Origin: a virus
Lineage: Duplodnaviria > Heunggongvirae > Uroviricota > Caudoviricetes
Strand: one strand, 5' to 3'
Virus record (IMG/VR): IMGVR_UViG_2529293040_000022
Length of the DNA: 22,206 nucleotides
Shown here one piece after another: positions 18,001-22,206 of the stretch (its first letter is position 1; the number at the start of each line of letters is the position of its first letter). The position numbers were made by a program.

Positions 18001-21000
18001 AGCGATGGGCCGGGAGGGACTCAACATACTACATGACAGCTTCATTGAACTGATTCAGAAAGACGGTATGCCAGACATGCCGGTTATGCACTGAGGTGGA
18101 CGAAAATGAACATAGTAACGATCAATAACAAACAGCTTCCGGCAGTCGAATATCGCGGTCAGCGTGTTGTGACGCTGGCGATGATTGATGAAGTCCACCA
18201 GCGACCGGAAGGAACAGCGCGTGCAGCATTCAACCGAAACCGTGAGCATTTCATCAGCGGTGTGGATTATGCCGAATTAGGTGCGGACGTAATACGTACG
18301 GACCTCCCGGAAGGAACATTCTCTAAATTTGCACCATCAGGGATTGTACTTTTTGAATCAGGTTACCTGATGTTGACGAAGCCATTCAATGACGCCCTTG
18401 CCTGGCAGGTTCAGCGCGAACTGGTTAACAGCTACTTCCGCACTCGCACACCGCTAACGGAAATCGAGATGATCGCTGCGATAGCCGCCGACGCTGTTCG
18501 TCAACAGAAGCGCCTGAATCATGTGGAAGAACAGCTCGAAACAGTCACAGAAGCGGTGGAAACCATCAAACGCGGAAATATGCGCGCCGGATATGTCGGT
18601 TATCGCCAGGTGGTCGCCAAAAGCGGAATGACTGATGCTAAGTGCCGCAATCTGGTCAATGCCTACAGCATCCCAACCGATACGCACGAATTTATGACAC
18701 CAGATGGTCTTCTTTCGCGCCGGGCTATCGTGGAGCTGGAGCCATTCATGAAAGCATTTCATCAGATGATGTCAGAGGCAGAGCCACGTGGTACCCGCTG
18801 GTATCACCCGAAGATGGGGCTGTTTCAGGTGATTGGTTGGGAGGGTAAATAATGTCACTCATTACACAAAATTTCCGCCTCAATGCGCTGGCAAATCAGT
18901 ATGCGGCGGCACTGCACAACCACATATCCGCCACCAGCGGTGGTCATTTCCTGATTAATGTCAATGGGCAATCCATACGAGTAAACATCATCGGTGGGGT
19001 TAAAGGCATCAGGGACTTAATCGATGGTTATGCTCTGAAGGCTATCAAAGAAAATTACCCCCAATGGGAAGCCGTTGGTATTCAACTGTTAAGCAAATGC
19101 GTTCGTGGAAACGAGCTGACGCAAAGCGGCAAAGAAATCTGGCAGAGCATGGTCAACGACATGAGCGATACCGTTATGGGGAACATGTAAATGAAAATCC
19201 AATACCAGGACTATGGCGCCGTAGCGAACATCGTGATCACCAGTTCCTGCCTGACATTGCAAAAGCATAACCGCGTTGTTGATGCGGTGCTGTTTAATGT
19301 ACAGGGGATCTCTGAAAACCGCAGCGGCTTTTTCTGGGTTAAGTCATCGTTGTCAGGAAAAACACGCGACATCCTGCGCGCCTACAAAATCGTACAGCGG
19401 GAGGCAAAGTGATGAAGTCATTCCTCCTGTCCATACTGTTTAGTCTGCTGCTGGCGTCCGTCGTTTTCGGTACGCTGATTGAATATAAATTTTTAATGAA
19501 TTACTGAGGTGCGGGGTGGGCAAGATCAAAAACCCAGTTGTACTTATCCATAAGCGAGAAAATAGTGACTCCTACGCCGTTACAATCACCTGCGGTAGCC
19601 AGAACTATCACGACGCCGTTCTGATGGCGTCGATGGAACTGGATATGAGTGACGATGATGTCGATACCTAGAGTAAAACAGGCTATTACATGGCTGAAGA
19701 AATCGAGCGACTGAAACAAGCACTTTCCGCTGCGGAAAATAATCTGATTGATTCCGAATGCCTCGTAGCTGAATTAAGCAAAGCAAAGGATCACGCATAT
19801 GGGCTGGTCGACACATACGACTGGCAACGTCAGCGTCTCCACGCAGCCGCTGAGAAAGTCCTCAAATGGTGCAGACAAGAAGCTGAACACCGTACCGGCG
19901 ATCCAGAGAAAGCAGAAAACTATGCGTGCGTTAAAGAACTACGCGACGCATTAACTTTTTGCAAAAGTTCTGAAAGCAGCAAGAAGAAAGGCCTGACTAT
20001 CACCCTGCCCGATATCACATCAAAGGCATTCTGGAGCGGTACCGGAAAAAACGCAAAATTCCATCCGGCAACCTATAAACGCTGGGTGAAAGAAGCTATT
20101 AAACGGGATTGTGTTATTGCCGGGATCGGCGTGGAGGTGAAATGATGAATTGGCCTGAAGCATTCACCGCAGTAGGAGTTGCAATAGCGGTGGCATTTAT
20201 TCTGTATTCGCTTTTCCGCTGGGGATAAAGGAATGTTCGCTCTGATTCAACGTGGTCAGATATACACCGATAGTGCTGGCTACCCGATAAAAATTATTCG
20301 CTGCATAAACAACACTGTGTTGTACAGAAGAATGGATGGGCGAACACAGTCGGTAAAAATAAACGATTTTAATGAACTGTTTGAACGGATCGATCACCAG
20401 GAATACCGACAAATTCTGGCAGAAACAGAGCAGGAAGCTCATCTGAAAAAATTACGAGCCATGAAAAGGAAGTAAAGAATGAATAAAGCATTTGAACGAT
20501 GGGTCCACCAGCGTTACGGCAATCGCTATGACCTGACACGAGATGTTGACGGTTTCTACTGTCGTGAAATTGTGAAACGAATGTTTGAAGTGTGGTGCCA
20601 CTGCCGTGGGCTGAGTGTTGTGTGAGGTTGGCATGCAGACAATCATCTATCAGATAACCCCCAGCAAATGGTGTACGGAGAGAGTCCTCATTGCATCAAC
20701 AGGGCTAAAGCCTGGCACCATTGAGCGGGCAAGAAGAAAGTCATGGATGCAGGGAAAAGAATACCGCCATTACGCTGTAGAAGGTGATCCGGGGCACTAC
20801 AGTGAATGCCTGTACAACATCGAAGAAATTATGCGATGGATCGAAAACCAGAAACAACCAGGTGCCAAAAATGCAAGTTCCGGTTAACCTGTTAATGCTC
20901 CTGGACGTCTGGGAGGTTTAATGAGTAACGCATCATACCCGACAGGCGTTGAAAACCATGGAGGATCACTCCGTATATGGTTTCACTATAATGGCAAACG

Positions 21001-22206
21001 TGTCAGAGAAAACCTCGGTGTTCCTGACACAGCCAAAAACCGGAAGATCGCTGGTGAACTTCGCACTTCCGTTTGTTTTGCAATCAGAATGGGGAGTTTC
21101 GACTACGCCGCGCAGTTCCCTAATTCCCCTAACCTGAAACACTTTGGTCTGGGAAAAAGAGAGATAACCGTTAAGGCACTTTCGGAAAAATGGTTGGACC
21201 TTAAGAAAATTGAGATTTGTGCGAATGCACTTAACCGTTACCAGTCAGTAATTAAAAACATGTTACCAATGTTAGGTGAAAAAAACTGGTTTCATCCATA
21301 ACAAAAGAGGATTTACTTTTCGTAAGGAGAGATTTGTTGACCGGTTACCAAAAGCTTTCTAATGGAAAGACTTCTTCCATAAAAGGGCGCTCAGTGGTCA
21401 CGGTAAACTACTATATGACAACCATAGCTGGAATGTTTCAATTTGCAACAGATAATGGTTATACCTCAGGAAACCCATTTAACGGTCTGGCTCCCTTAAA
21501 AAAGTCCAAGGTAAAACCAGATCCTCTCACCCGTGACGAATTTATTCGTTTTATTGAGGCTTGCCGTCATCAACAAACAAAAAACCTGTGGATTCTCGCT
21601 GTATACACGGGTATTCGTCACGGGGAGTTGGTATCGCTGGCATGGGAAGATATAGACCTTAAAGCAAGGACTATAACCATCCGTAGAAATTATACAAAAC
21701 TTGGCGAATTCACTCCACCAAAAACCGATGCAGGCACCGGAAGGACAATTCATCTGGTTCAACCAGCTATTGATGCTCTTAAAAGCCAGGCGGAAATGAC
21801 CATGCTTGGAAAGCAACATTCTGTAGAGGTGAAGCAGAGGGAATATGGGAGAACTGCTGTGCATAAATGCACTTTTGTTTTTAGTCCTCAGGTAACAAAA
21901 CAGCAGCAGTTGTCCGGACCTCACTACAAGGTTGACTCCATCAGGGAGTCATGGACAAGTATCTTAAAACGCGCAGGTCTGAGACACAGAAAATCGTACC
22001 AATCCAGGCATACTTATGCATGCTGGTCACTTGCCGCAGGAGCTAATCCTAGTTTTATCGCAAGCCAGATGGGCCACACAAACGCACAAATGGTATTCAA
22101 TGTTTACGGAGCATGGATGAAAGACAACAATCACGAACAGATAGAACTCCTTAACAAAAGACTATCTGAAAGTGTCCCATGTATGCCCCATAAGAAAGTT
22201 GGGTAA

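Follow-up and report, generated by a model that had tools for sequence, protein, structure and literature searches.

The integrase gene (int) analyzed here closes a 22,206-nucleotide (nt) stretch of DNA from a tailed phage of the class Caudoviricetes (IMG/VR record IMGVR_UViG_2529293040_000022), and the whole of this stretch is referred to below as the window. The gene was found to be distributed over two open reading frames (ORFs) in different frames, separated by a 1-nt deficit at a run of exactly seven A (A7), just as an initial annotation of the sequence had described it (Table 1). The downstream frame was open from position 21280 to the terminal TAA (22204-22206) and offered two possible TTG starts, at 21334 and 21337; the 289-amino-acid (aa) product beginning at the latter has been called by gene callers in other assemblies. 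Comparison with Pfam assigned known domains to both sides of the break, with PF12167 (Arm-DNA-bind_2) matching residues 7-70 of the first ORF (E = 8e-25, 87.1 bits) and PF00589 (Phage_integrase) matching the second (21334-22203; E = 2e-18, 67.1 bits, curated cut-off 27.1). Insertion of one A in the run joined both ORFs into a single frame of 428 codons, the length that had been anticipated, and the repaired protein matched a 428-aa integrase cluster (P0001; 1563 member sequences) with 99% identity across its entire length. The restored junction (GEKKLVSSITKEDLLF; …LGEKKLVSSITKEDLLF…), described earlier as sensible sequence, agreed with the family consensus. The two ORFs are thus the halves of one tyrosine integrase and not a chance juxtaposition.

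The active-site residues R233, K268, Y360, R363, H386 and Y396 (numbering of the repaired protein) aligned to Tn1549 Int structures, and the same six residues were invariant in an alignment of 18 family members. The gene has the catalytic profile, the R-K-(H/Y)-R-H-Y residues and the N-terminal arm domain of the family, and lacks an uninterrupted single frame; it is a member of the PF00589 plus PF12167 integrase family by descent, but a pseudogene. Within the catalytic half, the segment 21324-21339, which codes for VRRDLL in the intact gene, contains the motif AAGGAG (21324-21329) placed 7 nt before the TTG at 21337, in the catalytic frame.

Table 1. Features of the integrase locus and of the opposite end of the window.
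Feature	Position	Strand	Remarks
Integrase pseudogene, mlrA/yehV-specific lambdoid tyrosine integrase	20921..22206	+	428 codons with one A restored
N-terminal ORF, 126 aa	20921..21301	+	ATG start; arm-type DNA-binding domain, first core-binding helices and 5 out-of-frame residues (NWFHP)
A7 homopolymer	21279..21285	+	Wild-type allele A8, GAA AAA AAA = E-K-K
A_AAA_AAC, -1 slippery heptamer, zero-frame register	21280..21286	+	Codon register read from the sequence
Premature TAA, shifted frame	21299..21301	+	Read from the sequence
C-terminal ORF, 289 aa, TTG start	21337..22206	+	Remaining core-binding domain and complete catalytic domain
Excisionase, 84 aa, DUF1233, intact	20633..20887	+	33 nt upstream of int; identical arrangement called xisR by RefSeq
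IS66-family element	1..2616	-	tnpC 1-1572, tnpB 1593-1940, tnpA pieces 1940-2616; by similarity to annotated IS66 tnpA/B/C

Along its whole length, the int gene was 99.6-99.7% identical at the nucleotide level to those of VT1-Sakai (Sp15) and YYZ-2008, 99.1% identical to those of two Stx2a phages and 98.7% to that of BP-4795. Given this near-identity (98.7-99.7% over 100% of the gene), it is an mlrA (yehV)-specific integrase of the Sp15/VT1-Sakai, BP-4795 and YYZ-2008 type; the gene is annotated as tyrosine recombinase in 524 E. coli chromosomes. Besides sequence identity, the window shares with VT1-Sakai (Sp15), CP-933V, BP-4795 and YYZ-2008 the xis-int order, the position at mlrA and a junction about 32 nt past the int stop. 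It differs from them in having A7 instead of A8, and hence split ORFs of 126 and 289 aa, and also in the rest of the phage, which is not Stx1-like and corresponds to an stx-less relative of the Stx2f phage phi467 and of the F719 prophage in yecE.

In relatives whose sequence reaches further, int was followed directly by mlrA, yohO and yehW. A contig from SRR490664 (L012), representing the same clone as the window (99.98% identity), showed homology to K-12 mlrA starting again 32 nt past the int stop, close to codon 15 of mlrA, with int on the side of the prophage that borders the interrupted gene; since the sequence of the window ends with the int stop codon, the attachment site lies just beyond it. 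The initial annotation had remarked that the gene ends exactly at the window edge. This is true, but the edge results from the way in which the window was cut, and the contig runs on beyond it: the window corresponds to positions ~20-22225 of the 528-kb contig AIFA01000052.1 (GCA_000249155.2), with 100% identity over 6852 nt, and both of its edges coincide with gene ends (the int stop at one, the stop of the IS66 tnpC, at base 1, at the other).

The normal state of the tract was established with a 77-nt A8 probe and a 76-nt A7 probe, compared with 5426 complete E. coli genomes; 451 records matched, and tract states were deduced from identity bands. An exact A8 was present in 406 of the 451 records, another 43 had a diverged allele of the same length, A7 was found in 1, and 1 was left unresolved. 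In the one diverged record that was inspected (DEC5E), a synonymous change from GAA to GAG (GAG AAA AAA) cut the run to A6. The single A7 record was that of strain FDAARGOS_943, where the gene is marked as ‘frameshifted’ by RefSeq. Moreover, the gene measured 1287 nt in the best 40 chromosomal matches and in all 12 close phage matches, compared with 1286 nt in the window. These results confirm the 8-A allele that had been expected in intact homologues. The finding that was to speak against a frameshift, namely intact homologues with two separate ORFs at this point, was not obtained among these records, as two-ORF alleles were rare (~0.2-0.5%), derived and annotated as pseudogenes.

At larger distances, the best 120 of 884 homologues (E ≤ 1e-20; 68-85% identity) were single ORFs of 399-438 aa. 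The tripeptide at the junction was ENK, ENR, EKR or GNR in 17 aligned homologues, and intR, the homologue checked at the DNA level, had GAA AAA CGT with no long A run. A8 is the wild-type state of this gene, and its tract is a lineage-specific accident of codon choice that is not kept by selection. Nine complete E. coli genomes carried an int that was 99.9% identical to that of the window, with 0 single-nucleotide polymorphisms (SNPs) separating the window from these A8 alleles and a 1-nt gap as the sole difference; since nothing else has changed, the comparison points to a recent event.

Two further read sets from the clone of the window also yielded A7. Compared with the window, the contig from SRR490664 had A7, 2 SNPs and no indel over 10.9 kb, and that from ERR294526 (L013) had A7, 1 SNP and no indel over 7.7 kb. 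Both contain the phage of the window and share the chromosomal flank of its clone, a distinctive flank that differs by 3-4% from those of nearly all other loci (1.3% for L014), so that the allele is present in three data sets of one clone. As A7 recurs in the two additional read sets, a real deletion is likelier than an assembly error, and we infer that one A was probably lost from the A8 tract in a real, inherited deletion by which the integrase was split and inactivated.

In addition to complete genomes, the exact 126-aa product was on record in 125 contigs (146 index blocks), while the adjacent excisionase was found in 30326 blocks. The resulting ratio of ~0.5%, although rough, agrees with the 1-2 of 451 observed among complete genomes. 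Among the loci retrieved, A7 occurred on approximately 10 int haplotypes separated by 0 to 131 SNPs, including one identical to an O157:H7-type A8 allele; these loci varied in prophage context and in chromosomal background, and an A9 tract was found in one further locus (L017). The presence of A7 on some 10 haplotypes, together with that of A9, shows a site of recurrent slippage, and the A8 tract is a slippage hot spot, be it biological, technical or both. The int of FDAARGOS_943 (I6H00_RS01310, NZ_CP065615.1) resembles that of the window in its identical A7, in the same 126-aa product and in its position next to mlrA, and differs in its haplotype, 24 SNPs away, and in lying within another prophage remnant, ridden with IS600 and IS66 insertion sequences (ISs). 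Its distinct haplotype and prophage remnant mark this A7 as an independent occurrence.

Two of the A7 loci had neighbors other than mlrA. In SRR094968 (L016, 1243-2500), an A7 int with the haplotype of the window was followed by fimbrial usher and chaperone genes, and in GCA_013185785.1 (L006, 10417-12816) an A7 int with a divergent 3' end (131 SNPs, different stop) was followed by genes for NleG-type effectors. These contexts may reflect insertion elsewhere, rearrangement or chimerism of the contigs.

Regarding the consequences for the enzyme, the loss of one A from the tract, at codons E120-K121-K122 (GAA AAA AAA), would shift the frame at residue 121, inside the predicted helical core-binding domain, and translation would stop 5 codons on, leaving a 126-aa arm-binding fragment. 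The catalytic domain, with its active site intact, would be left in the -1 frame, where its only routes to synthesis would be initiation at an internal TTG, yielding a separate 289-aa fragment, or rare -1 slippage on A_AAA_AAC. Arm-dependent lambda-type integrases work only when a single polypeptide comprises the arm-binding, core-binding and catalytic domains; for this reason, nearly all Int-dependent excision of the lysogen would be lost and the prophage would be locked in mlrA. The split almost certainly inactivates the integrase, and the tract, being a slipped-strand hot spot, has probably undergone the same loss many times independently, at low frequency.

The position of the break was also considered in relation to the predicted fold. 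A structure model built on homologue P0001 and a 21-sequence alignment was poor (mean predicted local distance difference test score of 46), and its secondary-structure outline alone was used. According to this low-confidence model and to a weak SAM-like Pfam match (residues 83-131), the break falls between the helices at 115-118 and 129-141 of a predicted four-helix core-binding domain. It is scarcely conceivable that the two ORFs act as separate, cooperating polypeptides: the AAGGAG motif could drive synthesis of the C-terminal fragment, both ORFs are called by gene callers and every catalytic residue is intact, but the break would disrupt the core-binding domain, residues 122-139 (122-138 if translation starts at TTG 21334) would be absent from both fragments, the arrangement is the normal state in no lineage, and the same allele counts as a pseudogene in RefSeq. 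A functional split integrase was rejected on these four grounds.

More weight was given to the explanation that the strain truly carries A8 and an intact integrase, the homopolymer having been under-called by one base in the draft, an explanation that we keep as unlikely. Several observations favor it and weigh against a real deletion. The A7 of the window is known from assembled sequence and not from reads, and it comes from contig AIFA01000052.1, one of the AIFA accessions, which are drafts of the DECA E. coli collection dating from 2012; some DEC drafts contain frameshifts of uncertain origin, perhaps sequencing errors (PMC5592225). The single base is the sole difference from the nine complete genomes mentioned above, and two further 7-mers of the window, at 7960 and 8918, are 8-mers in close relatives. 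SRR490664 may share the sequencing project of the window, which leaves ERR294526 as the only clearly independent data set, and several of the other A7 records (L003, L004 and L018) come from assemblies with many broken genes. Against an artefact stand the recurrence of A7 in two other read sets of the clone, with zero indels relative to the window over 7.7-10.9 kb, and the fact that a run of eight A was called in the window at 8782-8789. Homopolymer differences run in both directions, the window being longer than phi467 at 8457 and 17563, and A7 at 8918 is common to the window and SRR490938. Furthermore, A7 is present in the complete RefSeq genome of FDAARGOS_943 and in GCA_901482675.2 (L002), two assemblies that share their int haplotype and in which the prophage remnant is heavily ridden with ISs. 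Under-calling of homopolymers throughout the window was rejected in view of the differences from relatives in both directions and of the A8 called at 8782. Of the three readings proposed in the initial annotation, an inactivating mutation is therefore favored, supported by A7 in the two clone-mates and by an IS66 element in the portal gene; a sequencing error is retained with the low probability just given, and slippage restoring full-length integrase is accepted only as an unselected by-product.

The possibility that the split has a selected function, with the A7 allele giving rise to full-length Int through programmed -1 ribosomal frameshifting or transcriptional slippage, or with reversible A7/A8 switching tuning excision from mlrA, was considered very improbable. 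The deletion yields A_AAA_AAC, a slippery heptamer of the X_XXY_YYZ type, exactly in the zero-frame register and within the overlap of both frames (21280-21301); this is the heptamer of IS1 -1 frameshifting, and the wild-type protein is precisely what a -1 slip on it would produce. The -1 frame is open from the tract onwards, with the stop of the zero frame located 14 nt further on. The likeness to the A6C site of IS1 insA-insB' comprises the identical heptamer, the same register, a short upstream ORF ending soon after it and a catalytic part in the -1 frame. In IS1, however, the conserved wild type has two ORFs and a pseudoknot has been suggested downstream, whereas the two-ORF form of the window is a rare allele derived from a single ORF, with no standout structure downstream. 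No stimulatory structure was detected in the 82 nt downstream, which folded no better than shuffled sequences (minimum free energy of -13.7 kcal/mol vs. a shuffle mean of -12.8, z = -0.29; pseudoknots were not searched). A Shine-Dalgarno-like AGGTG is located 1 nt upstream, a spacing that favors +1 and not -1 shifts, and efficient transcriptional slippage requires runs of about 9 or longer; both points argue against recoding. In IS1 itself, the A6C motif alone promotes -1 frameshifting at a ‘very low’ rate (PMC12428005).

Conservation bears on both forms of this explanation. In-frame A8 is the rule in complete records, the 120 best distant relatives are listed as single ORFs, and the two-ORF form, at ~0.2-0.5% of alleles, is the norm in no lineage examined. 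Like homopolymer contingency loci, the gene has a coding A-tract with natural -1 and +1 alleles that switch the frame off, and it is polymorphic in length in both directions (A7 at many loci and on many haplotypes, A8 as the norm, A9 at L017). Unlike in such loci, off alleles amount here to ≤0.5%, and the tract is not conserved: it is synonymously interrupted in ~10% of alleles (the 43 diverged records, with GAG AAA AAA in the one inspected) and absent from the more distant homologues examined, which have ENR or GNR, so that nothing maintains it. Programmed frameshifting was rejected owing to the lack of a downstream structure, to the rare and derived character of the two-ORF allele and to the non-conserved tract, and the last two reasons also led to the rejection of a contingency locus. 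The heptamer is a fortuitous product of the deletion; trace -1 frameshifting could take place on A_AAA_AAC, and any such leak is an unselected by-product. An even fainter chance was assigned to a reversible on/off switch, in which the prophage would be trapped in mlrA by A7 or A9 and could occasionally excise after slippage back to A8 or through rare -1 frameshifting; if it were true, restoration of mlrA, and hence curli and biofilm formation, would be phase-variable in lysogens.

Prophages inserted in mlrA are reported to disrupt its DNA-binding motif and to lower curli and biofilm formation in E. coli O157:H7, and spontaneous or induced excision to restore the gene together with both traits (PMC5931665). 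With a real deletion, the dead integrase would fix the prophage in mlrA, which would stay interrupted. For this strain the lesion matters a little; the prophage is stx-less and already damaged by IS66. The case is one of ordinary, rare and recurrent prophage decay, without any new mechanism, and the same allele is already marked as a pseudogene in RefSeq. What it adds, a mildly useful point that changes nothing for integrases or recoding, is the A8 tract as a recurrent hot spot: in a widespread integrase, A7 affects ~0.2-0.5% of carriers, and the site should be checked before prophages are called ‘intact’ or ‘defective’ from assemblies; long-read assemblies may miscall the tract.

Turning to the rest of the prophage, only the first ~100 nt of the portal gene (2670-2770), compared with phage cdtI, were left beside the IS66-family element, and this point constitutes a second lesion, at which the head/tail module was disrupted or deleted. 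With the element abutting a truncated portal gene, the prophage is decaying. The phage is a mosaic: its lysis, Q, replication and early regions (6458-20628) were 99.5-99.8% identical to Stx2f phage phi467 and to the F719 prophage in yecE, and from 20628 on the xis-int module is swapped for the mlrA-specific one. No stx genes were found in the window, nor were tRNA genes detected in it with ARAGORN. The large terminase ORF (3018-5075, minus strand) measured 685 aa, compared with 699 aa in phage cdtI, and two 1-nt shortenings in adjacent T runs at 3041-3042 (T4/T5 vs. T5/T6) alter its C-terminal end; in an exact-product look-up, the 685-aa product was not on record elsewhere.

Other homopolymers of the window were also variable. 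An AT-rich ORF of 283 aa (8099-8950, plus strand) without Pfam match, flanked by the Q antiterminator (9133-9963, minus strand) on one side and by the lysis genes on the other, occupies the place of stx2f in phi467 and contains five homopolymers of 7-8 nt. Its tract at 8918 was A7 in the window and in SRR490938, A8 in F719 and A9 in phi467, and that at 8457 was A7 in the window but one base shorter (A6) in phi467, where the gene is split; this ORF may represent a second gene that is hypervariable or decaying. An intergenic A7 at 7960-7966 was A8 in the near-identical SRR490938 contig, which otherwise showed 1 SNP in 4.5 kb. As for the clone-mates of the window, nonsense SNPs set their flanking chromosomes apart: in ERR294526 (~7811-8518) the mlrA remnant was cut to 77 aa, and in SRR490664 (~13395-14552) a SNP coincided with yehY being called as two ORFs.

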